A stretch of 64,000 nucleotides of DNA. Origin: an uncultured cyanobacterium (GTDB taxonomy: Bacteria > Cyanobacteriota > Cyanobacteriia > Cyanobacteriales > CAWCAG01). The stretch is from the NCBI GenBank assembly GCA_963803805.1, contig CAWDOD010000011.1, positions 320,001 through 384,000 on the forward strand, written 5' to 3'. A program made the position numbers and the translations under genes. Every line of letters begins with the position of its first letter. The first letter of the stretch is position 1. Shown piece by piece: positions 1 through 52,124 of the stretch. The notes beneath the pieces were generated by a model. That model searched no databases and was not told the origin of the DNA. It was given only the letters and a program-made list of their open reading frames with translations.

Positions 1-501
1 GCGGTGATCATGAAAATTATGGCAACCTGCTGTCCAGCAACCATCGGGAGAAAAGCCGTCATGACTTTTCATATCCCCTTGAATAATGCCCTCATGACAA
101 GCCATACAGAGGTCTGGTTTGAGGTTAACTCCTCGCCCAAACATATGCACGTGTTCTTCATGGCAAGCAGTACAAGTCAAGACATCTAACCTAGTTAACA
201 GTTCAGCCCAACGGGGGTCACGAAATTTTTTAGCCCCATGAACATCCTCAGCCATTTCTGCTTCATGACAACGCATACAGGTTTCGTTGCTAACCGGTTG
301 AAAACTTTCGTGGCAGGAACCACAAGAAGCCTCTACTAAGTAATGCCCATCAGAAGTTGTTCCCGGTAGGAAAACATTATGTTCATCTAAAGCAAAAGCA
401 GCCGTTAACCAAGCTGCAACAATAACAGCGATACCGATAATGGCGATTTTGGATTGAAAGAACTTACCAGGCTTGAAAATCCTGGCCAGATTGCTAGCCA
501 T
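1..501 (-). CDS. Multiheme c-type cytochrome (cytochrome c3-like), N-terminal 167 aa only; continues beyond the left edge
   Basis: Manual translation from ATG at 501 (AGGAG RBS at 510-506): MASNLARIFKPGKFFQSKIAIIGIAVIVAAWLTAAFALDEHNVFLPGTTSDGHYLVEASCGSCH...CMRCH...HGAKKFRDPRW...CTACH...CMACH...CWTAGCHNFHDHR. Open frame to position 1, N-terminal hydrophobic segment, 4 CxxCH and 1 CxxxxCH. Absent from the ORF track, probably because its stop lies outside the window. Confidence 0.9.
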   Translation of the reverse strand, partial: MASNLARIFKPGKFFQSKIAIIGIAVIVAAWLTAAFALDEHNVFLPGTTSDGHYLVEASCGSCHESFQPVSNETCMRCHEAEMAEDVHGAKKFRDPRWAELLTRLDVLTCTACHEEHVHMFGRGVNLKPDLCMACHEGIIQGDMKSHDGFSPDGCWTAGCHNFHDHR

Positions 502-510
502 TTTTCTCCT

Positions 511-1071
511 TTAGGCAATCAGGAGTAACAAAATCGTAAGTAAGCCGCCACCACAAAATAAACCACCAGCTAAACCCCAATTAACTTTGGCTTCAGGGGT
601 AGGAGGGAGGGTGTGAATATTAGCTGGGGTGGTGGGGGTTGATTTTAGCTGTATATCGGTCGAAGAATAATCTGCACCGGAAAGCATTAATTCTGTAATT
701 GCCCCATAAGCATCTACCCAAGCTTGCTTAACATCTGGTGTCCAATCTTGTTGCAAATACTGCTCAAACGTTGTTAACAAAGCATCACCTACCAATGGGT
801 AATGTTGTGGTAAAGCGCCATACTTAACGTGCTTTGCCCCTAATCCTTTAAGCGCACCACTGAGTGCATCAGGTTTCCGCAAGTTTTCTACTACTAAAAC
901 TAAAGAGGCAAGCAACTTTTTCTTTTGCTCTGTCATATCGCTATTAGCAAACAGAGGCTTAGCTTCAGGATGAGCAGTAAAGAGATTGTTGTAAAAAGAG
1001 GCTACAAAATTATCAGCTTGAGGTTTGACTTTTTCAAAACTTTCTTCTAGTAATTCTACTTGCAAAGACAT
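511..1071 (-). CDS. Single-domain flavohemoglobin-type (3/3) globin with Pro/Thr linker and C-terminal membrane anchor
   Basis: Globin landmarks: FY (B10 Tyr), PLF (CD1 Phe), EQ (E7 Gln), LGAKH (F8 His), HYPLVG, AW..AY. Then STPTTPANIHTLPPTP and a hydrophobic tail WGLAGGLFCGGGLLTILLLLIA. No reductase domain. Confidence 0.9.
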   Translation of the reverse strand: MSLQVELLEESFEKVKPQADNFVASFYNNLFTAHPEAKPLFANSDMTEQKKKLLASLVLVVENLRKPDALSGALKGLGAKHVKYGALPQHYPLVGDALLTTFEQYLQQDWTPDVKQAWVDAYGAITELMLSGADYSSTDIQLKSTPTTPANIHTLPPTPEAKVNWGLAGGLFCGGGLLTILLLLIA

Positions 1072-1400
1072 TAATTGGTTTTACTCCATATATTCAAAAT
1101 ATTTGCTGGCAATTGTTTTGTATTGCACCCAATCTCAAATTAATTTACTAGGAAGATTTATTGACAGCAAAAGCATTGCAAACCCCTAAAGAATCAGCTT
1201 TTTGTATCTCAGCAGAGCTAAAATTGATACATGATTTATAGCTTATTTTGAAGCTATTTAAGTCTATTAACTTAGCTTGGCTTGATATTTAATACTGTGA
1301 TTGTTTACACAAATATTCTCTATTTGTTTTTGTGGTTAAGGTTTGCCTATTGCAGATGTGTAAATTGATTGAGAATAAAGATTAACTTGGTTTCCTGGTT

Positions 1401-1443
1401 AATATAAACTCGTCGAAAACACGGTTTTGTAAATCTCTATACA
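1401..1443 (-). promoter_or_regulatory. Class II NtcA-activated promoter: TGTA-N8-TACA, 22 nt, then -10 TATATT
   Basis: Minus strand GTA(1442-1440) TAGAGATT TAC(1431-1429), exactly 22 nt, then TATATT (1406-1401), matching GTAN8TAC-N22-TAN3T. Points toward the globin gene; inferred TSS about 1394. Confidence 0.75.
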
Positions 1444-1475
1444 AAAAATATTTCTTCGATTTGAAAAAAGCATAA

Positions 1476-1500
1476 TAAATATGCAAAAATCGCATATTTA
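1476..1500. promoter_or_regulatory. LysR-type (NtcB-like AT-N11-AT) inverted repeat
   Basis: Perfect 9-bp arms TAAATATGC-AAAAATC-GCATATTTA containing AT-N11-AT at 1481-1495, centred about -94 from the inferred TSS. Confidence 0.55.
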
Positions 1501-1553: not shown

Positions 1554-1605
1554 TGATAATTGATAATTGATAATTGATAATTGATAATTGATAATTGATA
1601 ATTGA
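1554..1605. repeat. Heptamer tandem repeat (TGATAAT)x7 plus partial, STRR-like
   Basis: Seven perfect units at 1554-1602, intergenic. Confidence 0.95.
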
Positions 1606-10079: not shown

Positions 10080-10697
10080 TCATTGATTATCGAAAATATT
10101 GTTAACAAAAGAACTAATTACGGTTAACACTTCTGGTTTAATTTCGTGTCCCATCTCAAACTCACGATAATCTACTTGCACTCCTAATTTATTTAACTCG
10201 TCTCTAGCTTGTTGAGCCAGCTTTAAAGGTACAACTTGGTCTTGTTTACCATGAACAATCAAAGTAGGAGGACTATTTTCTGTACCTTGGGGTAGGGAGT
10301 GAAGATAACCGCTTAAGCTACAAATTCCGGCTAAAGGCAAACTTGATCCTACATCTAAAGCCATAGCTCCTCCTTGAGAAAAGCCAGCTAAAATAGTTTG
10401 AGAAAGAGGAATACCAGTCTGATCTTCCAAAGATAAAAGCCAATCAGTCAGCTTTTGCTGACTCTCGGACAAACCGAAATAGTCCGACTTTTCTAAAGCA
10501 TACCAAGCCTTTCCTCCTGGCGCTTGAGGGTGGGGAAAGGGGGCGTCAGGAAATACCATTTGGTAATTGGGAAGTTGTAACATAGGTGCTAAAGAAGCTA
10601 AATCTCTAGCATTTGCTCCCCAACCATGTAAACCCACAAGTAAATGAGTAGGAGAATATCCTGATGTCGGTTTAAGGGAAATTGCTTGTAAAGACAG
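10080..10697 (-). CDS. Alpha/beta hydrolase (phospholipase/carboxylesterase family)
   Basis: LHGWG, GFSQGG (Ser), HGKQD (Asp), MGHEI (His). Start placed at CTG 10697, 7 nt after a GAGGAG RBS; the ORF track uses ATG 10781. Confidence 0.88.
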   Translation of the reverse strand: MSLQAISLKPTSGYSPTHLLVGLHGWGANARDLASLAPMLQLPNYQMVFPDAPFPHPQAPGGKAWYALEKSDYFGLSESQQKLTDWLLSLEDQTGIPLSQTILAGFSQGGAMALDVGSSLPLAGICSLSGYLHSLPQGTENSPPTLIVHGKQDQVVPLKLAQQARDELNKLGVQVDYREFEMGHEIKPEVLTVISSFVNNIFDNQ

Positions 10698-10918
10698 AGT
10701 TTTTCTCCTCAGAATTAGGATGTAAGTAACGAGAGTTTCTTTAATTTTAAAGATTTCATGTAGATTAGCCAAATTAGCCATTTTAGTGATGGCGGCAAGG
10801 GATAGTTATTTGTTATCTTTGCCTAGGGTAGTAATCCCCACAAATAGATTTTGTTGTCATAATTTCAGTTTTTTAAATTGACCATTGTATCTCTACAAAG
10901 TTTCAGGAGAAAACTATC

Positions 10919-11317
10919 ATGGTAATGTCTCAAGAAGTTGCCCAAACTAAACCACTATCTTTCCCTTCCCTTGGCACTCCTACAGAAACTCGTCCTTGGG
11001 GGTCTTTTACTACTTTAGAAGAAGGAAGTGGCTACAAGATCAAACGTATAGAAGTAAAGCCAGGGCATCGTCTTAGCTTGCAGATGCACCACCATCGCAG
11101 CGAACACTGGATTGTTGTTTCTGGTACTGCCAAGGTTGTTTGTGGAGACACTGAAGAGATTTTAGCTAGTAATCAATCCACCTATGTTCCTCAATGTACT
11201 TCCCATCGTTTGGAAAATCCTGGGGTCATTAATTTGATTTTAATTGAAGTACAAAATGGCGAATATTTAGGAGAAGATGATATTATTCGCTTCCAAGATG
11301 ATTATGCTCGCGAGTAA
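10919..11317 (+). CDS. Mannose-6-phosphate isomerase type II C-terminal cupin protein
   Basis: RPWG, LSLQMHHHRSEHW, HRLENPG and EVQNGEYLGEDDIIRFQDDY motifs. Confidence 0.92.
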   Translation: MVMSQEVAQTKPLSFPSLGTPTETRPWGSFTTLEEGSGYKIKRIEVKPGHRLSLQMHHHRSEHWIVVSGTAKVVCGDTEEILASNQSTYVPQCTSHRLENPGVINLILIEVQNGEYLGEDDIIRFQDDYARE

Positions 11318-11401
11318 TTATTAATATTTCCTATCTCTAGGACTTAAAAACAGTCAATTTTAAGTACAATTCAAGCCAGACAAATCTGAATTAATTTTCC
11401 T

Positions 11402-11731
11402 ATGATTAAGCTTAGCCAGGCAGCTTTAAAAGAAATAAAGAGATTACAATCAACTCGCCATCAAGCTAATAGCAAGTTGCATCTAGGAGTGAAGCCTGGA
11501 GGTTGCGCTGGCTTATCTTATACTTTGGATTTCGATAAGAGCGTCAACCCAGAGGATCGTATTTGGGAAATTCATGGTATCTCTATCGTTGTAGGAAGTA
11601 AAAGCCAACCCTATCTTCAAGACCTAACTCTGGATTTCACAGAAGATTTAATGGGAGGAGGTTTCCGCTTCCGCAACCCTCTAGCTTCTCATAGCTGCGA
11701 TTGTGGCTATTCCTTCTCTACTAAAGTCTAA
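11402..11731 (+). CDS. iscA: Iron-sulfur cluster assembly accessory protein (IscA/HesB)
   Basis: GGCAGLSY and C-terminal CDCGYSF motifs. Confidence 0.9.
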   Translation: MIKLSQAALKEIKRLQSTRHQANSKLHLGVKPGGCAGLSYTLDFDKSVNPEDRIWEIHGISIVVGSKSQPYLQDLTLDFTEDLMGGGFRFRNPLASHSCDCGYSFSTKV

Positions 11732-19360: not shown

Positions 19361-20734
19361 CTAAGAAGCTACTGCAAATTGATGAGGATAATTTACTGCT
19401 AAAACAGGATTTAAAGAGCTTTGCTGTTGCAGGGGAATTTGTATAACAACTTGAGTTCCTTGCCCAGGCTGTGAATGGCAAGCCAGCTTACCACCATGTT
19501 TTTCTACAATAATAGAGTAGCTGATTGCCAAACCCATGCCAGTCCCTTTACCAATAGGTTTTGTTGTAAAAAAAGGATTAAATAACTTACTAATCAAATC
19601 TTGGTTGATTCCTACGCCATTATCAGAGATAGAAATTTCTAGCCAGTAAGAGTCAATTGCTTGGGTTTGTATCCTAATTTGCGGTTGCTCAAGAATACTG
19701 TCAATCAAACCAAACTTTTCTTCTATTGCATCAATAGCATTAGCCAGAATATTCATAAAAACTTGGTTCAATTGTCCCGGATAACACTCTACTAGTGGCA
19801 ATTTACCATAATCTTTAATTACTTCAATCTTGAAGCAGTTTTGCTGAGATTTAAGGCGACTTTTAAGAATCATTAAAGTATTGCTGATACCTTCATGAAT
19901 ATCCACATCTTTAATCTCTGCTTCATCCATATGAGAAAAATTCCTTAAGCTGAGGACAATTTCTCGAATACGCTCTGCCCCTACTTGCATTGACTTAATA
20001 GTTTTTGGTAAATCTTCAATAGCAAAATCCAAATCGAGTTCGAGCATTTTTTTGGCTAGTATTGGGCTAGGCTGATTATGTTCATCTTGATACAGCTTGA
20101 GAACTTCTAATAAACTTTGAGTATATTCTTGAGTGTGAACTAGATTACCAAAAATAAAATTCATTGGATTGTTGATTTCATGAGCAACCCCTGCAACCAA
20201 TTGCCCTAAGCTAGACATTTTTTCACTTTGTATTAAGTGAGTTTGCGCCCTTTTTAACTCTTGTAGGGTTTGATCCAATTCTGCGGTGCGTTCAGAAACT
20301 CTTTTTTCTAATACCTGGTTTTGTTCTTCGACTTTGTTGGTGAGGTGATGAACTTTAATATGAAGCTTAACCCGTGCTAGAACCTCTTCTTGTTCAAAAG
20401 GTTTAGTGATATAATCTACTGCTCCCGAATTAAGCCCTTTAACTTTATTATCAGTATCACAAAGAGCTGTCATGAAAACGATGGGAATATTCTGGGTAGC
20501 AGGATTGCTTTTGATCTGACGACAGGTTTCAAAGCCATCTATACCTGGCATCATTACGTCTAAAAGGATTAAATCTGGCAAAGCAAATTTTACTCTTTCG
20601 AGGGCAATATCCCCAGATTTTGCAATCCAAACTTCAAACCCTGCTATATCTAAAAAGTCTGAAAGCACTCCTAAGTTAGCCGGGTTATCATCAACAATCA
20701 AGATAATACCTTGATGCTGCGATCTAGTACTCAT
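19361..20734 (-). CDS. Response regulator-histidine kinase hybrid (REC, HisKA, HATPase)
   Basis: ILIVDD, LLDVMMPG, DYITKP; SEKMSSLGQLVAGVAHEINNP; FFTTKPIGKGTGMGL. Confidence 0.95.
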   Translation of the reverse strand: MSTRSQHQGIILIVDDNPANLGVLSDFLDIAGFEVWIAKSGDIALERVKFALPDLILLDVMMPGIDGFETCRQIKSNPATQNIPIVFMTALCDTDNKVKGLNSGAVDYITKPFEQEEVLARVKLHIKVHHLTNKVEEQNQVLEKRVSERTAELDQTLQELKRAQTHLIQSEKMSSLGQLVAGVAHEINNPMNFIFGNLVHTQEYTQSLLEVLKLYQDEHNQPSPILAKKMLELDLDFAIEDLPKTIKSMQVGAERIREIVLSLRNFSHMDEAEIKDVDIHEGISNTLMILKSRLKSQQNCFKIEVIKDYGKLPLVECYPGQLNQVFMNILANAIDAIEEKFGLIDSILEQPQIRIQTQAIDSYWLEISISDNGVGINQDLISKLFNPFFTTKPIGKGTGMGLAISYSIIVEKHGGKLACHSQPGQGTQVVIQIPLQQQSSLNPVLAVNYPHQFAVAS

Positions 20735-20926: not shown

Positions 20927-23900
20927 CTAGGGAGTTTTATAAACTGTAATCATCTCTAAAATCGCTTCATCTTGAAAAGTCTTAGCAAGTTTCTGTAATT
21001 TCTCTGCAAAAGGAGCAAACTTATAATCAACTTGCACCAAAGTTTTTGTTTGTTGAACAATACCCTTCATGTTCCCCTTCATGGCTAAATCGTAGATAAT
21101 ATTTAGTTGTTCTAACTCAGGTATCACTAAATCCTGAACTTGCTCAATATCTTTCTGTTTGTGTTGTTGTTCCTGATAAAGCCATTGCAAAGCAAGATGC
21201 TTTTGTATCTTATGGAGTAACTCACTCGCCTGCACCGGCTTAGGCAGAAAATCATCTCCACCCGCTTCATAACTCTTATATTGATCCGACTCAAACACAC
21301 TTGCTGAAGAAGCAATAATCTTCACACCTTGAAGTTGTTGTTGTTGACGCAACTGTCTCATCAACTCAAACCCATCTAAATTAGGCATCAACAGGTCAGT
21401 AATAATTAACTCCGGTTTCAACAAGAGTGCTTTTTCTAACCCTTGTTGACCATCTATAGCCTCACTCACCTCAAAACCAATGGGTTGCAACAAGCTCTTA
21501 ATCACCGAACGATTCTCCCACTTATCATCCACCACCAATACCTTCACTTCCCCTGCCGATTCGATACCAATAATTTGCCCCTGAGAGTCTGCTTGAGAAG
21601 CTTGCACCCATTCTGAAGCCGAAGGTAAACTTACATCAAAGTGGAAGATACTTCCTACTCCTTGTTCACTCTTCACTTCTAGAGTTGAACCCATCATCTC
21701 TACTATTTTCTGTGAGATAGCTAATCCTAATCCTGTACCTTCTGTTTGTCGTTTTCCTTCTCCTACTTGTTCAAAGGGTAAGAAGATTTGTTCGAGGTGT
21801 TCAGGATTCATGCCGATACCTGTATCCCTTATTTCAAAGCGAATTTTATCTACTGAAGCAAAACTAACTTGGAAAGTTACCCTACCTTTATTGGTGAACT
21901 TAATGGCGTTGTTAAGTAAGTTTAGTAATACTTGACGTAGACGCTTTTCATCGATGTAAACCGCTACTGGGAGTTCTGGGGTTGATTGGTAAAGGAAGTC
22001 AATGCCTTTAATTTCAGCACGAATACGACACATTTCCGCCACCCCTTGTAAGAAAGCGAGGAAATGGAAGTCAGTGGGGTTGAGTTCCATTTTCTGAGCT
22101 TCAATTTTGGAGATGTCGAGGATGTCATTGATGAGAGTGAGTAGGTGGGAACCACAGTTGTAGATGATTTCGATGCGGGATTGGTCGTCAGAAGTTATGT
22201 GGGTGGAGCGTTGTAGTACTTGAGCATAACCCATGATGCCGTTGAGGGGGGTACGGAGTTCATGGCTCATGTTGGCGAGGAATTCGCTTTTGGCGTGGTT
22301 GGCGGCTTCTGCTTTTTCTTTGGCTTTTTGTAGGGCTATTTCTGTTCGCTTGAGGCTAGTTATGTCTGTGACAACACACAATACCTGATCCATTTCGCCA
22401 CTCTTTGACAGTAGGGGTTTTTTAATAGTTTTATAGTATGATGTTTCTCCAGTTTCATCAGTGAAAGCTTCTTCTACTTCGCTGATTTGTCCAGAACTAA
22501 TGACTTGCTGATCTGTAGATAAATAGCTTTCTGCTTCATTGGTATTCGGGTGAAAATCAGCATCAGTTTTACCAATGAGCTTCTCTACTGTAGTTTTGTA
22601 CATCTGTGCTAAAGGCTGATTAGCGAGGATATACTTACCTTGTTGATCCTTAACAGCGATGAAGTTAGGAGCTGTATCAATAACATTGCGTAAGAATTCT
22701 TTCTGTTGAATCAGAGCAGTTTCTATTCGCTTGATATGGCTAATATTTGTGGAGACACCCAATACCTGACGAGTTTTGCCATCACTAGATACAAAGGGCT
22801 TTTTGATGCTTTGATAATATAAGACTTCTCCATTACGCAAAGTGACTGTTTCTTCTAGTGAAACCGTTTCTCCTGAGAGCATCACTTGACGGTCAGATTG
22901 TTGATACTGCTCTATTTCAAAAGTTTGAGAATTAAAATCAAAATCCGTTTTACCAACTATTTCTTCAGTAGTAGTTTGATAAAGGTCTGCTAAAGCTTGA
23001 TTGGCAAGAATGTATTTACCTTGCCAATCCTTGACAAAAATAACATTGGGGTCTGTATCAATAATCTTGCGTAAAAATTCCTTTTGCTCTTTCAGGGCAG
23101 CTTTTGAGCGCAGCAACTCTTCTTCTACTGTCTTGCGTTCTGTAATATCACGGGTAATAGTTCCCCAAGCTATACCTTCTCCTGTATCTGAATCTTTGAG
23201 AGCAAAGATGCTGTAATCCACAGGAATTGCTTTACCCGTTTGTAAATTCCGCAAGCGTAACTCTCCTCGCCAGTAACCTTTTTCCTGTGCTGTCGGTAAA
23301 ACTTCTTGAGTCACTTGCTCAATATCTTCAGGCCAGAAAAGGTCTAAGATGTGTTTAGAGCGAGCTTCTGCTAGGCTTTTAAAGCCTAGCATTTCTAAAC
23401 CGGCAGAATTAACAAATATTGGTTTTCCTTCTTGATCAGTAAAACCTGCCAGGTCAGAAGTATTCTCAATAACAGAGGCTAATTTCTGAAGCTCTTGTTC
23501 TGCTAGTTTGCGTTCAGTGATGTCGCTAGTCGTCCCCGTGGCCCCAATAATCTTACCTTGGGCATTTCGCAAGGGTACAGCATTTAATAAAGAATAAGCC
23601 TTACGACCATCCGTTGTTAGGTGACTAATTTCATGTTGAGTATAGGTTTTTCCCTGCAAAATATTAGCAAAAATTTCTTGATGTTCTTCTTTTTTGTCTG
23701 GAGGAATAAAATCTCTAAAAGAACGACCAATTAATTCTTGCGGTTTGCAGCCAAATGCCTTTTCGGCAACTTTATTTGAGAAAGTGTAGCGTCCTTCACG
23801 ATCTAAAGTCCAAATCTGATCTTGAGATGTTTCTACTACAGTACGATAATTTTGTTCATGCAGTTGTTGTTTTACTCTAATCCTGGCTAGCCAATAACAA

Positions 23901-24934
23901 ACAATTGCAATTATTACTACGACAACTCCATAAAATGTCACTAACCAGACAGAAGTTAGACCAGAACTGTAGTTTAGAACTTCAGGAGGTATATAAGTAA
24001 CAATCTTCCAACTATAGTCAGTTTCTCCTGAGCTAGTTTTGATTTGCTGATTTTTTTGCCAAGGGTTAACTGTAGCGAAAGTAAATAATCCTTCTTTAGT
24101 GTGAAGCTGTCCCTTTTGTTGAGTAGCTATTTTCCCCCAAGCTTGAGGGAAAGTTTTCTCAAAAGTACGTCCTTGATGAGAAGGGTACATAAAACCCCAT
24201 TCGTCTTCCGCTTTTAATCCTTTGAGCCAATAACCTTGATTATTAATTAAGAGTACTTTACCTAAAGAAGTATGATTTTTGACTTCTAAATTATCAAGAA
24301 ATTGTTGACCTGAATAGTTAAGGATCAGTAAACCTTGTTTGCGACCAGAATTATCAAATATAGGGGCAGCGAAGCGGATTACAGGCTTAATAGGTTTCTC
24401 AATTTCTCCCCATTCAATACTCAAATCAAGCTGAGAAATATAAATCTCTCCTGGCTTTAATTTAATGCTTTCTTGAAACCAATAACGCTCGGCTTTGTTT
24501 TGTAATTCATCTGGAGGTACGACCTCTAGTTGCAGTTGATTATGGTTGATTCTGATTATTTCTTGACCTGCGGTATCTAAAAAGCGAATTTGGTCATATA
24601 GTTCTTTATGCCGAGCAAAAGATAGATAAATTTTAATTAAGCTATTTGCTTGATTAGGATTAAGCGGCGATATAGACTGCAATTCATTTTGCTCTGCCAA
24701 AAACTTCAAGTCTGAGATAATCGCTTTAAAATCACTAGCAGCAATTTTCTCCTGTTGTCCTACACTACGAATTTCATTAAGTTCTATTTTTTGTTGTTGA
24801 AGTTTATGATTTCCTTGATAAATCAGACCAATAAATCCGCCGATTAAGAGAATTATGGGGACAAGAAGGGAAAGAAAATATTTCAGAGTCGCTATGTTGC
24901 TAACTTTATTTACCTGAAGAGAAGGATAGGACAT
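20927..24934 (-). CDS. Membrane hybrid sensor histidine kinase (TM, Cache-like, TM, 4 PAS, HisKA, HATPase, REC)
   Basis: Two TM segments around a periplasmic domain, four PAS/PAC units, [26 protein letters not shown]...DLLMP. Confidence 0.95.
20960..22369. repeat. Copy 1 of a ~1.41-kb near-identical direct repeat (kinase plus receiver module)
   Basis: Matches 25123-26532 at offset 4163; one mismatch seen by eye (21446 T vs 25609 C). Confidence 0.93.
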
Positions 24935-25092
24935 GAGCCAACAAAACTATAGCGTGATGTATATACTGATTCTTCTACTATATTCAAATATAAATGTTTA
25001 CGCTTATGTATATTTTCGTGTTCTTTTTGCGAAGAAAGAGTTAATTAATCCGTAGAAACCAACGTGGTTTTATACTCGAAGAAAATAAAATA

Positions 25093-28000
25093 TTAACTTC
25101 TATATTGGAAAAGAAAACTAACAATCGCTTCATCTTGAAAAGTCTTAGCAAGTTTCTGTAATTTCTCTGCAAAAGGAGCAAACTTATAATCAACTTGCAC
25201 CAAAGTTTTTGTTTGTTGAACAATACCCTTCATGTTCCCCTTCATGGCTAAATCGTAGATAATATTTAGTTGTTCTAACTCAGGTATCACTAAATCCTGA
25301 ACTTGCTCAATATCTTTCTGTTTGTGTTGTTGTTCCTGATAAAGCCATTGCAAAGCAAGATGCTTTTGTATCTTATGGAGTAACTCACTCGCCTGCACCG
25401 GCTTAGGCAGAAAATCATCTCCACCCGCTTCATAACTCTTATATTGATCCGACTCAAACACACTTGCTGAAGAAGCAATAATCTTCACACCTTGAAGTTG
25501 TTGTTGTTGACGCAACTGTCTCATCAACTCAAACCCATCTAAATTAGGCATCAACAGGTCAGTAATAATTAACTCCGGTTTCAACAAGAGTGCTTTTTCT
25601 AACCCTTGCTGACCATCTATAGCCTCACTCACCTCAAAACCAATGGGTTGCAACAAGCTCTTAATCACCGAACGATTCTCCCACTTATCATCCACCACCA
25701 ATACCTTCACTTCCCCTGCCGATTCGATACCAATAATTTGCCCCTGAGAGTCTGCTTGAGAAGCTTGCACCCATTCTGAAGCCGAAGGTAAACTTACATC
25801 AAAGTGGAAGATACTTCCTACTCCTTGTTCACTCTTCACTTCTAGAGTTGAACCCATCATCTCTACTATTTTCTGTGAGATAGCTAATCCTAATCCTGTA
25901 CCTTCTGTTTGTCGTTTTCCTTCTCCTACTTGTTCAAAGGGTAAGAAGATTTGTTCGAGGTGTTCAGGATTCATGCCGATACCTGTATCCCTTATTTCAA
26001 AGCGAATTTTATCTACTGAAGCAAAACTAACTTGGAAAGTTACCCTACCTTTATTGGTGAACTTAATGGCGTTGTTAAGTAAGTTTAGTAATACTTGACG
26101 TAGACGCTTTTCATCGATGTAAACCGCTACTGGGAGTTCTGGGGTTGATTGGTAAAGGAAGTCAATGCCTTTAATTTCAGCACGAATACGACACATTTCC
26201 GCCACCCCTTGTAAGAAAGCGAGGAAATGGAAGTCAGTGGGGTTGAGTTCCATTTTCTGAGCTTCAATTTTGGAGATGTCGAGGATGTCATTGATGAGAG
26301 TGAGTAGGTGGGAACCACAGTTGTAGATGATTTCGATGCGGGATTGGTCGTCAGAAGTTATGTGGGTGGAGCGTTGTAGTACTTGAGCATAACCCATGAT
26401 GCCGTTGAGGGGGGTACGGAGTTCATGGCTCATGTTGGCGAGGAATTCGCTTTTGGCGTGGTTGGCGGCTTCTGCTTTTTCTTTGGCTTTTTGTAGGGCT
26501 ATTTCTGTTCGCTTGAGGCTAGTTATGTCTGTAGCAACACACAATACCTGATAAGTTTTGTCATCCCCAGATAGCAAAGGCTTTTTGGTACTCTGATAAT
26601 ATAAGACTTCTCCATTAGGCAAAGTTACTGTTTCTTCTAATATGAGTGTTTCTCTTGAGAGAATCACTTTGCGGTCGGCTTCTTGATACTTTTCTACTTC
26701 AGCTAAGTTAGAATTATAAGCTAGTTCAGTTTTGCCAATTAAGTCCTCAACAGTAGTTTGGTATATATCTGCTAGAGCTTGGTTAGCTAATGTAAATTTG
26801 CCCTCTTTGTCTTTGACAAAAATGACATTGGGGTCAGTATCAATAACGCTGCGTAAAAACTTCTTTTGCTCTCTCAATGCAGTTTCTACTTTTTTAATAG
26901 GAGTAATGTTGGTGGAGACACCTAATACCTGGCGAGTTCCACCGTTACGGGAAATCAAAGGTTTCTTGATAGTTTGTAAATAAATTAACTCTCCAGTAAC
27001 CTTGGTAAGAGTTTCTTCAAAAAGTTGCGATTCTCCAGAGGTCATTACCTGGCAATCTGCCCATAAGTAACTTTCTACTTCCAGGGTATTGGGGTTAAAA
27101 TCAGCATCACTTTTACCAACCATTTCTTCAGTAGTAGTTTGATAAAGTTCTGCTAAAGTTTGATTGGCAAGAATGTATTTACCTTCCCAATCCTTAACAA
27201 AAATAAGATTGGGGTCTGTATCAATAATCTTACTTAAAAACTCCTTTTGCTCCCTTAAAGCAGCTTCTGAATGTCGCAAGGCTTCCTCTGCTTGCTTACG
27301 TTCAGTTATATCTTCAGAAAAACAGAGCAAGTATTCTGGTTCACCATTTTCGTCATAGGTAGGTATCTTAACTGTATGAAGAATCCTTTCACCTAATCTG
27401 CGACTATGGGTAATTTCTTCGGGAATATCTATAATTTTGCGGTTCTTAAAAGCTTCTTTGTCAGTTTGAAAAAAGAAGTCAGCTTTTTCTTGAGAAAAAA
27501 GCTCATGGGCAGTTTTTCCTAGTACTTCCTCTGCTGCTAAATCAAAAAGTAATTCGCTGGTTTTATTCCAAAGTTTAATTTGAGAAAATTTCTCTTGATG
27601 TCCATCTTTGACAAATACAGCTACTGGTAAGTAATCAATCATTGCTTGGAGAAAATTACGAGCTTGACGCAACTCTTCTTCTGCTTTTTTGCGCTCTGTA
27701 ATATCGCGGGTAATGCTTCCCCAAGCTATAGCTTCTCCTGTATCTGAATCTTTAAGAGCAAAGATGCTGTAATCTACAGGAATTACTTCCCCTGTTTGGA
27801 AATGTCGGAAGCGCAACTCTCCTCGCCAGCAACCTTTTTCCTGTGCAGTCGGTAAAATCTCTTGAGTTACTCGGTCTACATCTTCAGGCCAAACATAGTC
27901 TAAGATGTGATTAGAGCGAGCTTCTGCTAAGCTATTTAAGCCAACCATTTTTAAAGCCGCAGGATTAGCAAATAAAGCTTTTCCTTCTTGATCAGCGATT

Positions 28001-29538
28001 CCTACAAAATCAGAAGTATTTTCTACAATAGAGGCCAATCTCCGAAGCTCTTGTTCTGCTAGTTTGCTTTCGGTGATGTCGTTGGTTGTACCTGTAACTC
28101 CGATAATCTTGCCCTGAGCATCTCGAATTGGTGCAGCGTTGATTAATAGATAAATCCTATTACCATCTGCCGTTAAACTGCTAATTTCATATTGACTATA
28201 AGATTTTCCTTGCAAAACATTAGCAAAAACTTCTTGATATTCTGCTTGTTTTTCTTTTGGGGTAAAATCTTTAAAAGAGCGACCAATTAATGTTTGGGGT
28301 TTACAGCCTAGGGCTTTTTCAGCAGCTTGATTTACGAAGGTATAGCGCCCTTGGGTATCAAAAGACCAAATCAAGTTTTGGGATGTTTCTACCACATTGC
28401 GATAATTTCGTTCGCTTTCTTGGAGTTGTTTTTCTACTAGCTTCTCTTTAACTTTAGTTTTAGCTAACCAAGCACAACCTATAGCTATTAAAACTACTGC
28501 TCCTCCATAAAATCCTACTAGCCAAACCAAGATTATCGTTGATTTCTGATTAAGGACTTCCGGAGGAACATAGGTGACAATCTTCCAGCTATGATCAGTT
28601 TCGGGTGAACTAATATTAATTCTCTGTTTTTGCTGCTGGGGTTGAATAGTGGTGACAGTAAATAATCCTTCTTTTGTTTGGAACTGTCCTTCTTTTACCC
28701 CAGCTATTTGCGCCCAAGCTTGAGGGAAAGTTTTCTCAAAAGTAAGCCTTTGACGCTCAGGATAAATAAAACCCCATTCATCTTCTGCTTTTAATCCTTT
28801 GAGCCAATAACCTTGATTATTGATTAAGAGTACTTTACCTAAAGAAGTATGGTTTTTAACTGCTAAATCATCAATAATTCTTTGCCCTGAATAGTTAAGA
28901 ATAACTAAACCTTGTTTACGCCCAGAATCATCAAACACAGGGGTAGCGAAGCGAACTACAGGCTTGATAGGTTGCTCGACTTGCCCCCATTCCATATTCA
29001 AATCAAGTTTAGATACATAAATCTCTCTTGGCTTGAATTCTTTGCTTTCTTGAAACCAATAGCTTCCTATTTTATTTTGCAGTTGTTTTTGAGGTACTCT
29101 AACTGCTTTACCTCTTTTTTGATTATATTCAACTCTAAAAACTTCTTGACCTGTATTATCAAGAAGACGAACTTGGTGATAATTTTTTTTAGCTTCAGCA
29201 AAAGAAATATACTCTTGAGCAAATGCAACAGAAATTTTTTCTATTTCTTGCGGTGAGAGATTATCTCTGTCTAAAATTAAACTTAATTCTTCATGGTCTA
29301 CTAAATGTAATAAATCTGAGGTAATGACTTCAAAATTACCAGCAGCGATTTTTTCTTGCTGCTCCACATTACGTAATTCATTAAGCTCAATTTCTTTTCT
29401 GTCTAATTTAACTTCTCCTTGGTAAAATAAAATTAAGAAACCTCCAACGATCAAAGTTAGAGGTACAAACAGAAGTAAAAAATATCTTAGTACGGCTATT
29501 TTGCTGATTTTAAGTACTTGGGAAGAAGGTTGAAACAT
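25093..29538 (-). CDS. Membrane hybrid sensor histidine kinase paralog (TM, Cache-like, TM, 5 PAS, HisKA, HATPase, REC)
   Basis: Same architecture as its neighbour with one more PAS domain; about 470 aa of the C-terminal module are identical. Confidence 0.95.
25123..26532. repeat. Copy 2 of the ~1.41-kb near-identical direct repeat
   Basis: Matches copy 1; identical shadow ORFs recur in the ORF track at offset 4163. Confidence 0.93.
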
Positions 29539-49693: not shown

Positions 49694-49856
49694 TCTCTGC
49701 GTAACCCCATCGTTCCCTCATCCCCTTCTCAGGGAAATTTAAGTTGGGCTTTGTTTAATACTTCTATGTATACAAGATTCAAGTTAATAATTGATAATTG
49801 TACGGCTTTGCCGTTGTCGTAGACTAAGTTAATGATTGCAAAAAGGAAAATTACTT

Positions 49857-51041
49857 GTGACTGAAATCGCTACGGATCGACAAAAGGCAAACACATCAGA
49901 GTTATTGGCATATAGCGTAGAAAATGCTGTATTGGACAGATATCAAGCGGGGGCAAAAGAAGTACAACCTAGCTTATGTTGTCCCACAGAATATGAAGGT
50001 AATTACCTCGATATTCTACCAGAGGAGATAATTGCTAAAGATTATGGTTGTGGCGATCCTACCCGTTATGTCCGTGAGGGAGAAACAGTAGTAGATTTGG
50101 GTTCTGGCGCAGGGAAAAATTGTTATATGCTTGCCCAAAAAGTTGGTTCCCAGGGCAAGATTATTGGTGTTGATTTTAATGATGAGATGCTGGATTTAGC
50201 AAGGAAGTATCAAGAAGAAATAGCTGCTAAAATTGGCTACCACAATACCAATTTTGTCAAGGGTAAAATCCAAGACTTGAAGTTAGATTGGGGCAAAATG
50301 CAAACCTGGTTGCAACAAAACCCCATTGCTTCTTTGCCTGAGATGGAAGCCTTTGAAGCAGAAGGCGATCGCCTAAGAATTCAAGAACCTTTGATAGCTG
50401 ATGAAAGTGTTGATGTGGTGATTTCCAACTGCGTTCTCAACCTTGTTCGTCCTCAAGATAAGCAACAACTATTCCAAGAAATTCACCGGGTTCTCAAACG
50501 AGGAGGTAGGGCGGTTATTTCTGATATTGTTTGTGATGAAAATCCTACAGCTAATATTCTCCAAGATCCCGATTTATGGAGTGGCTGCATTGCTGGGGCT
50601 TTTCGTGAAGACGAATTTTTAGCTATGTTTGAAAAAGCTAGTTTTTATGGTATTGAGATTCTTAATCGTCAAATAGAACCTTGGCAGGTTATTGATGGTA
50701 TTGAGTTTCGTTCCTTAACAGTACGGGCTTATAAAGGCAAAGAAGGTGATTGTTTAGAACGTAACCAAGCTGTGGTTTATAAAGGCCCTTGGAAGGAAGT
50801 TAAAGACGATGATGGTCATACTTTTTACCGAGGAAAGCGTATGGCAGTTTGCGATAAAACTTTTCAGATTTTAACCAATCCTGGAGGGGCTTACAGTGAA
50901 GATATTATTGCGATTGAACCTTATCAAGAGGTTAGATTAGAAGAAGCCCAAGAGTTTAAATGCAAAACCGATGCAATTCGTCATCCTAAAGAAAGCAAGG
51001 GAACAGATTATCAGCTAAATATGACCAACACTTGTTGTTAG
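49857..51041 (+). CDS. arsM: Arsenite methyltransferase-like SAM methyltransferase
   Basis: LCCP, YGCGDP, DLGSGAG, ISNCV, WSGCIAGA and C-terminal CC; directly upstream of arsS; GTG 49857. Confidence 0.75.
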   Translation: MTEIATDRQKANTSELLAYSVENAVLDRYQAGAKEVQPSLCCPTEYEGNYLDILPEEIIAKDYGCGDPTRYVREGETVVDLGSGAGKNCYMLAQKVGSQGKIIGVDFNDEMLDLARKYQEEIAAKIGYHNTNFVKGKIQDLKLDWGKMQTWLQQNPIASLPEMEAFEAEGDRLRIQEPLIADESVDVVISNCVLNLVRPQDKQQLFQEIHRVLKRGGRAVISDIVCDENPTANILQDPDLWSGCIAGAFREDEFLAMFEKASFYGIEILNRQIEPWQVIDGIEFRSLTVRAYKGKEGDCLERNQAVVYKGPWKEVKDDDGHTFYRGKRMAVCDKTFQILTNPGGAYSEDIIAIEPYQEVRLEEAQEFKCKTDAIRHPKESKGTDYQLNMTNTCC

Positions 51042-51062
51042 TTAAAAAGTAATAGGTAATAT

Positions 51063-51112
51063 TATCACCTATCACCTATCACCTATTACATATCATCTAT
51101 TACCTATCACCT
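51063..51112. repeat. Degenerate heptamer tandem repeat (TATCACC)n between arsM and arsS
   Basis: tatcacc tatcacc tatcacc tattaca tatcatc tattacc tatcacc. Confidence 0.85.
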
Positions 51113-51116
51113 AAAG

Positions 51117-52124
51117 ATGCTTCAATCTCCAACCAAAAAGCAATTAGACAAAGTAACTCCCTTTGCAGAAAAAATAGTTACTCCTTTAAATAAGCAAAAA
51201 ATTACTGTCCTGCAAATCAATTTAGGGCGGCGTTGTAACCTCGCTTGTACTCACTGCCATGTAGAAGCTAGTCCAAAACGAACAGAAGAATTATCTCCAG
51301 AAATTTGTCAACAACTAATTGAGGTGATTAACAGTTTTCCTCAAATTGAAACTGTTGACTTAACAGGTGGTGCGCCGGAGATGAATTACGGTTTTCGAGA
51401 TTTAGTAGCCGCAGCAAGAAGTCAAAATAAAGAGGTAATTGTCCGCTCTAATTTAACTATTTTCTTTGAACTAGGATATACAGATTTACCAGAGTATTTT
51501 GCTGAAAACAAGCTTAGGGTAGTTGCTTCTTTACCTTGTTATTTAGAAGACAATGTTGATAAGCAAAGGGGGGCAGGAGTTTATCACAATTCTATTCAAG
51601 CTATCCAAAAACTGAACAATTTAGGCTATGGTAGAACCCCGGATTTGATTATTGATTTAGTTTATAATCCTGCCCTGCCCATTGATGAAAACTTTTCCCT
51701 AACTCCTGAGCAAGAAAAGTTGGAATCTGACTACAAAACTTATTTACAAAAACACTTTGATATTCAGTTCAATAACCTTTTCACTATCACCAATATTCCT
51801 GTTGGTAGAACTAAACAGTTTTTGCAGCGTCGTCAGTTACATCAACCCTACCTTAAGTTTTTAGAAGCAAGTTATAACCCGGCAACTGTACCTGCCTTAA
51901 TGTGCCGCAATGAACTTTCTATTGATTATTTAGGAAATATTTACGACTGTGACTTTAACCAAATGGCAAATCTTTTTGTCGCAACTCCGCAAGGAGAAAA
52001 GTTAACTGTAGAGAAGTTGTTGGAATTAAATGATCTTGATGTTATTCAAGAGATAAAAACTGCTACTTATTGTTATGGTTGTACGGCGGGAAGTGGTTCT
52101 AGTTGTGGGGGAGCATTGATTTAA
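51117..52124 (+). CDS. arsS: Arsenosugar biosynthesis radical SAM protein
   Basis: CNLACTHC, DLTGGAPE, YDCDFNQ and C-terminal CYGCTAGSGSSCGGAL. Confidence 0.9.
   Translation: MLQSPTKKQLDKVTPFAEKIVTPLNKQKITVLQINLGRRCNLACTHCHVEASPKRTEELSPEICQQLIEVINSFPQIETVDLTGGAPEMNYGFRDLVAAARSQNKEVIVRSNLTIFFELGYTDLPEYFAENKLRVVASLPCYLEDNVDKQRGAGVYHNSIQAIQKLNNLGYGRTPDLIIDLVYNPALPIDENFSLTPEQEKLESDYKTYLQKHFDIQFNNLFTITNIPVGRTKQFLQRRQLHQPYLKFLEASYNPATVPALMCRNELSIDYLGNIYDCDFNQMANLFVATPQGEKLTVEKLLELNDLDVIQEIKTATYCYGCTAGSGSSCGGALI

Follow-up and report, generated by a model that had tools for sequence, protein, structure and literature searches.

Globins of the flavohaemoglobin lineage need a reductase, and sulfate-reducing bacteria possess membrane complexes (Hmc, Tmc and Qrc) in which a periplasmic multihaem cytochrome c is combined with a membrane cytochrome b and a cytoplasmic redox protein. 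Multihaem cytochromes c are a hallmark of respiratory and extracellular electron transfer in phyla other than the cyanobacteria; to our knowledge, they are usually called missing from cyanobacteria, which are generally regarded as lacking the ability to exchange electrons with their surroundings by way of such proteins. Here we describe a gene cluster that reaches into one end of a 64,000-nucleotide stretch of DNA from an uncultured member of the Cyanobacteriales (GenBank assembly GCA_963803805.1, contig CAWDOD010000011.1, positions 320,001 to 384,000; this whole stretch is hereafter called the window) and that begins with the genes of a globin and of a multihaem cytochrome c (cyt5). The predicted promoter of the cluster is, in sequence and in geometry, that of a nirA-type target of the regulators NtcA and NtcB. 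From the gene content and the motifs we infer, with a probability of about one half, that the cluster encodes a nitrite- or nitrogen-controlled transmembrane haem relay serving the cytoplasmic globin, probably for the handling of nitric oxide (NO).

As described in a preprint, the nirA promoter of Anabaena (PnirA) carries an NtcB box of the form ATGC-N7-GCAT-N7-ATGC-N7-GCAT at −100 to −64, followed by a 15-bp spacer and an NtcA box GTA-N8-TAC at −48 to −35, and a change of the spacer by 5 bp abolishes co-activation (10.1101/2022.10.10.511513). The Chlamydomonas globin THB1, which is under the control of the nitrate regulator NIT2, is reported to act as an NO dioxygenase that receives its electrons from nitrate reductase (PMC4620153).

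Conservation of the gene cluster

Relatives of the cyt5 fragment were sought exhaustively, and without a profile, among 1.84 billion representative proteins. There were 304 of them at E ≤1e-3 and nine at E ≤1e-30, and they fell into two size classes, a short one (~200 aa) and a long one (~430 aa, with 11 haem motifs). GTDB (one genome per species) was scanned with an alignment of four close cytochrome sequences, and for this reason only close, cyanobacterial relatives were retrieved. The scan gave 183 pattern matches, 139 of which encode a relative of the cytochrome, as confirmed by tblastn. The initial annotation, made from the sequence of the window, had called multihaem cytochromes rare in cyanobacteria; with 139 relatives among the species genomes, the present one is not very rare.

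All locus counts given below refer to the best 80 of the 139 relatives (64-78% identity; the other 59 lie outside this set), and all 80 loci lie on cyanobacterial or unclassified contigs. The loci share ancestry, and their counts therefore overstate the number of independent events. Many of them are interrupted by contig ends, which affects the counts of the looser cluster members. In a FastTree phylogeny of cyt5 the loci are scattered across many cyanobacterial families (Coleofasciculaceae, Microcoleaceae, Xenococcaceae, Pleurocapsaceae, Leptolyngbyaceae, Acaryochloridaceae, Spirulinaceae and others), and the sequences nearest to that of the window come from an Oscillatoria metagenome-assembled genome and from Moorena, at no more than 78% identity. 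Most of the hosts named in the records of the loci are benthic or mat-forming, examples being Moorena, Coleofasciculus, Xenococcus, Roseofilum and Geitlerinema BBD.

A globin gene lies directly upstream of cyt5, on the same strand, in 78 of the 80 loci. The exceptions are L047, in which the DNA ahead of cyt5 is limited to 208 nt, and L057, whose globin gene is found 5 kb away on the opposite strand. The junction in the window reads TAA-AGGAG-AAAA-ATG on the minus strand (513..499), with 9 nt between stop and start codons, and the corresponding gaps in the related loci are mostly 3-42 nt. The AGGAG and ATG noticed behind the globin stop codon, the reading of the two genes as an operon-like unit, and the conservation of the pair across cyanobacteria are all upheld by these results.

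The rest of the operon had been expected to lie to the left of the window, and the related loci support this: cyt5, of which the window lacks the last ~48 codons, is 204-241 aa long elsewhere (mode, 215 aa) and is followed in the relatives by four or more conserved genes. The genes beyond position 1 are read from these relatives, the closest of which is a locus of 78% identity. The conserved order is cyt5, a second cytochrome gene (cyt6), a Tll0287-like gene and a DUF4405-like gene; the last three were found in 77, 74 and 69 loci, respectively. Loci without one of them are short contigs that end early, except for L002, in which an open reading frame (ORF) with the N-terminus of the family is present and falls below the coverage filter. 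Looser members of the cluster are genes for a pentapeptide-repeat protein (56 loci), a ResB-like protein (55), a thioredoxin (50), a CcsA-like protein (49) and a Rieske protein (36).

The initial annotation had suggested looking in the neighbourhood for genes of nitrite or nitrate reductase, ferredoxin or an FAD-oxidoreductase, and none of these recurs around the cluster in the 80 loci. An ABC ATPase that seemed to recur nearby was rejected as a single-linkage artefact, since a nitrate-transporter-type ATPase is present in L033 only.

The upstream region

The elements found upstream of the globin gene in the window are listed in Table 1. A GTA-N8-TAC box ~22 nt upstream of a −10 hexamer is the arrangement of a class II NtcA promoter, and this is what the window contains. 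The initial annotation had spoken of an NtcA-type promoter with a LysR palindrome; both are present, and the palindrome turns out to resemble, in sequence and in geometry, the published NtcB box of nirA and to be conserved across families. The nitrogen control suggested at that time is now predicted more strongly.

The promoter counts were made over those 68 of the 80 loci that have sufficient DNA upstream of the first globin gene. In 39 of the 68, an exact GTA-N8-TAC is found in the 400 nt ahead of this gene (500 first-order Markov shuffles: mean 3.7, maximum 12); its density there is 1.56 per kb, compared with 0.21 per kb elsewhere in the loci. The exact dyad ATGC-N7-GCAT is present in 22 loci (shuffles: mean 0.58, maximum 4), and a dyad with at most one mismatch in 63 (mean 10.95, maximum 20). 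The gap between dyad and NtcA box is 37/38 nt for the distal copy or 15/16 nt for the proximal one in nearly all cases.

We therefore counted composite sites, defined as a dyad and a box with at most one mismatch each and a gap of 14-17 or 36-39 nt. Such a composite lies upstream of the first globin gene in 61 of the 68 loci (200 shuffles: mean 0.33, maximum 3); it is missing in L002, L009, L024, L026, L027, L041 and L065. The 61 aligned sites are all mutually different and contain 52 different NtcA boxes, and the TA located 22 nt after the box is retained in 92-93% of them. The composite of the window, whose 38-nt distal distance occurs in fourteen other sites, is the sole exact one on either strand of the 64 kb, and three relaxed matches elsewhere in the window were taken as chance. 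It is the recurrence of the composite at fixed spacing across the loci that places the promoter beyond chance, for which a single window would have been insufficient.

When both strands of all 80 loci were considered, 65 composites were located upstream of globin genes and 40 in the remaining 2.35 Mb, that is, 1.9 versus 0.017 per kb (112-fold). The composite is nearly absent upstream of the internal genes (0/74, 0/69, 0/51, 0/50, 0/35, 1/77 and 1/59), consistent with one transcription unit that begins with the globin gene. In 14 of 54 loci a second composite, in the right orientation, precedes the ResB-like gene, suggesting a bidirectional, co-regulated control region that includes the maturation genes in one clade. 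The loci with a composite on the ResB side include L050, L052, L067, L068, L072, L075 and L078, and there it faces divergent ResB-like, CcsA-like and Rieske genes.

The same sites could be bound by other regulators of the LysR type and the CRP family, in which case the promoter would respond to a signal other than nitrogen status, for example anoxia, redox state, sulfide or iron. In favour of such regulators, T-N11-A dyads and GTA-N8-TAC-like boxes are common to the respective regulator families as a whole; a further point is a LysR-family gene that lies within 10 kb of the cluster in five loci (e.g. L053:16132-16995): its best model is a selenium-metabolism-associated LysR, below threshold, and it matches no NtcB-specific NCBIfam model. 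However, the resemblance exceeds the T-N11-A motif, because it extends to the ATGC/GCAT arms, the 7-nt inner spacer and the tandem arrangement with a 7-nt gap, and the distances of 15/16 nt to the box and of 22 nt to the −10 hexamer are those given for PnirA (10.1101/2022.10.10.511513). We consider other regulators unlikely, and retain NtcA and NtcB as the predicted ones.

The predicted leader of the window transcript contains no ORF of ≥40 aa on the minus strand, and no Rfam family, riboswitch or other known RNA was detected within it. A sub-threshold match to a small RNA inside the cytochrome gene was taken as chance. Farther upstream, between an ORF for an 81-aa membrane protein and the NtcB-type box, the heptamer TGATAAT is repeated in perfect tandem (7.4 copies, score 104). 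Several promoter-like matches on the plus strand arise from this array, which resembles the short tandem heptamer repeats of filamentous cyanobacteria.

Table 1. Coordinates of features in the 64,000-nt window
Feature	Position	Strand	Remarks
Cytochrome gene cyt5, first 167 codons	1..501	−	c-type; open at window edge
Globin-cytochrome junction	502..510	−	nine bases, AGGAGAAAA
Shine-Dalgarno-like AGGAG	506-510	−	between globin stop codon (511-513) and cyt5 ATG (499-501)
Globin gene	511..1071	−	186 aa, single domain, flavohaemoglobin lineage
Codons of globin C-terminal tail	514..585	−	last 24 residues, to the protein end; Gly-rich, uncharged, hydrophobic
Leader	1072..1400	−	between predicted −10 box and globin ATG; implied 5′ untranslated region of ~320 nt
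−10-like hexamer TATATT	1401-1406	−	22 nt downstream of NtcA-type box
NtcA-type box GTATAGAGATTTAC	1429-1442	−	GTA-N8-TAC
Proximal NtcB-type half, degenerate	1459-1473	−	ATGC-N7-AAAT, 2 mismatches; 16 nt upstream of NtcA-type box
Distal NtcB-type half	1481-1495	−	exact dyad ATGC-N7-GCAT, T-N11-A LysR motif; 7 nt to proximal copy
TGATAAT array	1554-1605		7.4 copies
ORF of 81-aa membrane protein	1641-1886	−	
ORF of 151 aa	5980-6435	−	partial match to HmpF model
Response-regulator/kinase gene	19361-20734		adjoins the kinase pair
Two hybrid histidine kinase genes	20927-29538	−	1335 and 1481 aa
ArsM-like and ArsS genes	49836-52124		adjacent

The globin

The protein encoded by the first gene of the cluster matches the Pfam Globin family (PF00042; E 5.6e-19, 69.2 bits versus a cut-off of 22). 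Its closest solved relatives are 3s1i (1.4e-23), the haemoglobin of Vitreoscilla (1vhb; 2e-18) and flavohaemoglobins (1.9e-17), with Methylacidiphilum haemoglobins among the best. When the protein is aligned with Vitreoscilla haemoglobin, its residues Y27, Q49, H81 and Y91 coincide with a Tyr, Gln, His and Tyr, respectively, of the Vitreoscilla haem pocket, and they are invariant across 48 aligned family members; we take them to be positions B10, E7, F8 and G5 (distal Tyr and Gln, proximal His and a nearby Tyr). No reductase domain was found in the window globin, for which the flavohaemoprotein model gave 77.6 bits versus 432 and was covered at positions 19-134 of 399 only; at 186 aa, the protein lacks the FAD/NAD(P)H reductase that belongs to flavohaemoglobin proper (Hmp).

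The hydrophobic C-terminal end of the window globin (mean Kyte-Doolittle value of 2.28 over the final 20 residues) is taken to be a membrane tail anchor. The initial annotation had described a tail-anchored globin without a reductase of its own, and this description stands as a prediction. An uncharged, hydrophobic final 20-mer is shared by 69 of the 78 globins encoded directly upstream of cyt5, and in two further ones it contains a single Lys. Globins devoid of the tail were found in seven loci (L010, L014, L015, L017, L018, L034 and L039).

Most of the globins of the cluster have two domains (~340 aa), and the single-domain form of the window is a minority type that it shares with Moorena. 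There are also larger proteins of 515 and 784 aa with three or more matching stretches (L022:7451-9805; L036:3986-5533), and a further globin gene is present in 15 of the 80 loci.

The split 11-haem cytochrome

The N-terminus of cyt5 has a hydrophobic anchor or signal segment after four basic residues, and the protein matches Pfam Cytochrom_c3_2 (PF14537; E 9.3e-8, 32.9 bits versus 25). At least five haem motifs in 167 aa had been claimed for it. Five there are, of which only four are of the CXXCH form (CGSCH 60-64, CMRCH 75-79, CTACH 110-114 and CMACH 132-136), the fifth being CX4CH (CWTAGCH 155-161). In an alignment of 63 sequences, distant ones included, five invariant His residues outside the motifs accompany these five haems as potential distal ligands, and with one extra His per haem cyt5 has the features of a class III (c3-type) multihaem cytochrome. 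The cyt6 protein has a signal peptide and six CXXCH motifs (family scans, one locus), and six conserved candidate His residues for its six haems. Since the conserved extra His residues suffice for every haem, all eleven haems are read as bis-His electron carriers. Neither a CXXCK motif nor any other sign of a haem open for catalysis was seen in cyt5 or cyt6.

The two proteins align side by side with a single longer one: cyt5 with residues 26-178 (45% identity) and cyt6 with residues 201-432 (44% identity) of the 436-aa protein P0125. By these alignments, an 11-haem protein that other phyla make as one chain is split here into two halves, cyt5 and cyt6. The start of cyt6 overlaps the stop codon of cyt5 by 4 nt in 68 of 77 loci. 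The 11-haem long forms, some of them from Verrucomicrobiota, are named merely “cytochrome c3 family protein” or “predicted CXXCH cytochrome”; their NCBIfam matches all fall far below cut-off, and a search of solved structures gave no sequence relative (best PDB E 0.078). In one non-cyanobacterial protein (P0130, 831 aa) an MFS transporter domain is fused ahead of the entire 11-haem cytochrome, and the best models for this domain are aromatic-acid and sialate symporters, below threshold.

Several known identities were tried for the cytochromes and rejected: (i) that of NapC/NirT/NrfH, for which cyt5 gave neither a Cytochrom_NNT nor an NrfH match and cyt6 reached 21.2 bits versus 24.1 and, with NrfH, 16.9 versus 134, (ii) that of the catalytic multihaem enzymes (NrfA, octahaem reductases and HAO), in view of short NrfA matches of 15-28 bits versus 595 and of the missing CXXCK, and (iii) membership of Mtr/DmsE and HmcA, with model scores far below cut-off. 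The AlphaFold model of cyt5 is poor (pLDDT 59.7), and the fold search with it returned ion channels at a best E of 0.8, which is meaningless.

In L008 the cyt6 protein (10645-11658) ends in a peptidoglycan-binding domain (PF01471, 1.2e-9), which points to a location of the cytochromes in the periplasm, in association with the wall, rather than in the thylakoid lumen, at least in this species.

The membrane protein and the accessory genes

HX13H spacing is a feature of membrane cytochromes b whose two haems lie stacked from one side of the bilayer to the other. In the DUF4405-like protein, H92, H106, H181 and H195 are invariant in 46 sequences and form two HX13H pairs, and in the AlphaFold model they are placed, paired and 14 residues apart, on two long predicted helices. 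The 46 members gave sub-threshold Pfam matches to DUF4405 (38/46), Ni_hydr_CYTB (31/46) and PepSY_TM (11/46), and in a fold search the di-haem subunit FdnI appeared at E 6.9 and TM 0.40. The protein is likely to be a di-haem cytochrome b and thus a candidate link across the membrane. In a preprint, haem b binding was shown for a DUF4405 protein after purification, and four central His residues are described (10.1101/2024.03.13.584918).

The Tll0287-family lipoprotein (PF11845, 3.7e-17) contains one CXXCH (family scans, one locus). Globin-coupled sensors are known, and one might regard the haem proteins of the cluster as a gas- or redox-sensing device in which the globin and this sCache_haem protein are the sensors. 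For signalling members of the Tll0287/sCache_haem family, a preprint reports the sensing of NO; the lipoprotein of the cluster, in contrast, is of the stand-alone class, which the preprint finds in ~30% of cyanobacterial genomes and describes as redox-like and as a weak binder of NO (10.64898/2026.02.01.703092). The conserved core of the cluster has no kinase, cyclase, MCP or DNA-binding output domain, and eleven wire-like haems would be unnecessary for sensing, which leaves a sensing device very improbable.

Among the looser members, the thioredoxin has a hydrophobic N-terminal stretch and is taken to be exported to the periplasm, and the Rieske protein has an RR-containing, lipoprotein-like N-terminus. 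The ResB-like and CcsA-like proteins (611 and 573 aa in one locus) are unusually long. With matches to PF01578 (116.9 bits versus 29.9) and PF05140 (46.2 versus 24.6), this pair of the related loci represents the ResB/Ccs1 and CcsA components of a System II cytochrome c biogenesis apparatus. The CcsB equivalog model was missed (168.6 versus 187.6), and from this and the unusual lengths we infer that the two are paralogues and not the housekeeping pair. A ChaN-type haem-binding lipoprotein (PF04187, 2.7e-70; L062:14693-15574) is encoded near the cluster in 12 of the 80 loci and may be a periplasmic haem-handling accessory.

So large a periplasmic apparatus, the prospect of a partner outside and the cost of an inward electron flow make it the main rival to the relay that the periplasmic part is itself the working enzyme or respiratory module, or hands electrons on to the outside. 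It would reduce or oxidise a substrate in the periplasm or beyond the cell, such as nitrite, NO, hydroxylamine, a metal or a sulfur compound encountered in mats at night. The DUF4405-like protein would then connect it to the quinone pool or to the cytoplasm, and the globin would be auxiliary, as a buffer or sensor of O2 or NO or as a protective protein. The heavy investment in periplasmic haems with a dedicated ResB/CcsA pair agrees with this, as do the nearby ChaN-like lipoprotein, the fused 11-haem relatives in non-cyanobacterial phyla, the fusion of one of them to an MFS transporter, the benthic or mat-forming habit of most named hosts, and the weak, partial matches to the NrfA, DmsE and HmcA models. 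However, every haem has a conserved His as candidate sixth ligand, no open catalytic haem is seen, the models of catalytic and other named multihaem families are matched far below cut-off, and no solved structure came below E 0.078. Moreover, 78 of 80 loci have the globin at the head of the operon, and the globin often occurs in two or three copies; both points speak for its central role. On balance, we regard an independent periplasmic module as doubtful.

Proposed function

The relay that we favour would be built across the cytoplasmic membrane during the assimilation of nitrate or nitrite, when 2-oxoglutarate-bound NtcA and NtcB are active. On its periplasmic side would stand the eleven c-haems with their bis-His ligation, together with the haem-c lipoprotein and a Rieske centre; electrons would cross the membrane via the two b-haems of the DUF4405-like protein and reach, at the cytoplasmic end, the globin, tethered to the inner face by its tail. 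Since the globin has an NO-dioxygenase-type pocket but no reductase domain, the relay would supply the globin haem with the electrons that, in flavohaemoglobin, come from the FAD/NAD(P)H domain. Kept reduced in this way, the globin could dispose of the NO that arises as nitrite is metabolised, by converting NO and O2 into nitrate, and possibly by reducing NO under anoxic conditions. The extra ResB/CcsA pair might attach haem to the cytochromes of the cluster, perhaps at the unusual CX4CH site. In its most detailed form, as a nitrite-inducible conduit in which the split 11-haem cytochrome, the haem-c Cache protein and the Rieske protein are wired via the di-haem b protein to one or several globin domains, the proposal is tentative.

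The initial annotation had pictured a membrane redox module, with the globin coupled to an exported multihaem electron carrier, for NO or nitrite handling or a non-canonical nitrate/nitrite pathway. This is supported in part: the conserved cluster of globin and haem proteins and the nirA-type promoter agree with it, no nitrite or nitrate reductase gene recurs nearby, and the putative di-haem b protein is added as the likely link across the membrane.

A number of observations weigh against the relay. All of its steps are read from the motifs and from which genes are present. If NO dioxygenation were the whole task, there would be no obvious need for 12 periplasmic haems, a Rieske centre and a maturation system of its own, and an inward flow of electrons to a cytoplasmic globin opposes the membrane potential. 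No gene of nitrate or nitrite assimilation recurs beside the cluster in the 80 loci, the sole case being an NrtD-like ATPase in L033. As to the promoter, GTA-N8-TAC taken alone is at the level of chance in the window (13 versus 10.0 expected; 18 of 100 shuffles reach 13), the proximal NtcB half-site of the window has two mismatches and its spacer is 16 bp instead of 15, the strict TAN3T form of the −10 hexamer follows only 16 of the 39 exact boxes (many have TATAAA), and with shared ancestry the 61 promoter sites are not 61 independent events. The assignment of the DUF4405-like protein is below the Pfam cut-offs (best E 1.3e-4), no solved structure matched its AlphaFold model (pLDDT 74.8) significantly (best E 1.1), and of the 78 operon globins 7 to 9 lack the hydrophobic tail.

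If the relay exists, a cytochrome chain across the membrane would be a new answer to the question of how a stand-alone globin is kept reduced; it would be a reductase system for globins of a new type and would add a branch to the NtcA-NtcB regulon, and nitrate and nitrite assimilation would be tied to periplasmic redox chemistry. As far as we know, the NtcB regulon has been treated as scarcely more than the genes of nitrate assimilation, a view that a second widely conserved NtcB target would change. The split 11-haem protein, with a haem-attachment system of its own, is present in at least 139 species genomes, and mat-forming cyanobacteria could, if the proposal is correct, exchange electrons with the outside. 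In benthic and mat habitats, including black-band disease, NO, nitrite, sulfide and anoxia alternate daily; many carriers are benthic or mat-forming, isolates from black-band disease among them, and the cluster may matter for the turnover of nitrogen oxides there.

Other genes in the window

One gene of the window matches the cyanobacterial RNase E model (1029 bits versus a cut-off of 900), and by this gene content, as by its nearest relatives, the DNA is cyanobacterial. A gene resembling that of the arsenite methyltransferase ArsM (316 bits versus a cut-off of 500) adjoins a gene for the radical SAM protein ArsS (424.9 versus 300), and the two are likely to be an arsenosugar biosynthesis pair. 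Two adjacent hybrid histidine kinases with multiple PAS domains have near-identical profiles of family matches and apparently arose by tandem duplication; a response-regulator/kinase gene adjoins them. The match of the 151-aa ORF to the model of HmpF (pilus-motility taxis) is confined to positions 1-149 of 553, and the ORF is either a short HmpF paralogue or a truncated gene.

Comparison with known systems

A full-text literature search found no paper describing this cluster, no membrane-anchored bacterial globin encoded with cytochromes, and no NtcB-type promoter ahead of a globin gene, a result that is provisional, since most subscription journals and the supplements of preprints lie outside the coverage of the search. 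Each part of the cluster belongs to or resembles a known family; their combination and control are, on this provisional basis, not described before.

The globin shares its lineage with flavohaemoglobin (Hmp) and the Vitreoscilla-type haemoglobins (solved relatives at E 1e-23 to 2e-17). It differs from Hmp in that it has no reductase domain, ends in a C-terminal membrane tail, is often tandem or multi-domain, and is encoded together with cytochromes.

The three-layered architecture proposed here is like that of Hmc, Tmc and Qrc of sulfate reducers. The HmcA and QrcA models gave weak, sub-threshold matches with cyt6 and the fused forms, which do not amount to homology at the family level, and the cluster differs in its DUF4405-like membrane subunit and in the globin as the cytoplasmic module, for which we know of no precedent in such a transmembrane complex. 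The fused 11-haem “cytochrome c3 family protein” (of Verrucomicrobiota and other phyla, e.g. P0125) is colinear with cyt5 plus cyt6, at 44-45% identity and with like haem motifs, the CX4CH included; it is a single chain, whereas the cyanobacterial form is split. The membrane protein of the cluster resembles the DUF4405, MsrQ and PepSY-like cytochromes b in its four conserved His residues on predicted transmembrane helices, its Pfam matches being below cut-off. The described DUF4405 proteins accompany ApbE flavinylation or ferrosomes, whereas the present one accompanies c-type cytochromes and a globin.

In function, the proposed system is closest to THB1 and nitrate reductase, where a nitrate-regulated globin likewise borrows electrons to dioxygenate NO (PMC4620153). 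THB1 is a soluble, truncated (2/2) eukaryotic globin, with the FAD domain of nitrate reductase as donor. The globin of the cluster, in contrast, is 3/3 and predicted to be membrane-anchored, and its proposed donor is a transmembrane haem chain, so that the resemblance is functional only.

Finally, the elements and distances of the nirA promoter of Anabaena, in which GTA-N8-TAC is centred near −41.5 and followed by a −10 box (10.1101/2022.10.10.511513; PMC3898017), are common to 61 of the 68 loci. The window departs from this pattern in its 16-bp spacer, its degenerate proximal half and its long predicted leader (~320 nt). Unlike the nirA promoter, which serves nitrite reductase and nitrate transport, the promoter of the cluster would drive the expression of haem proteins.

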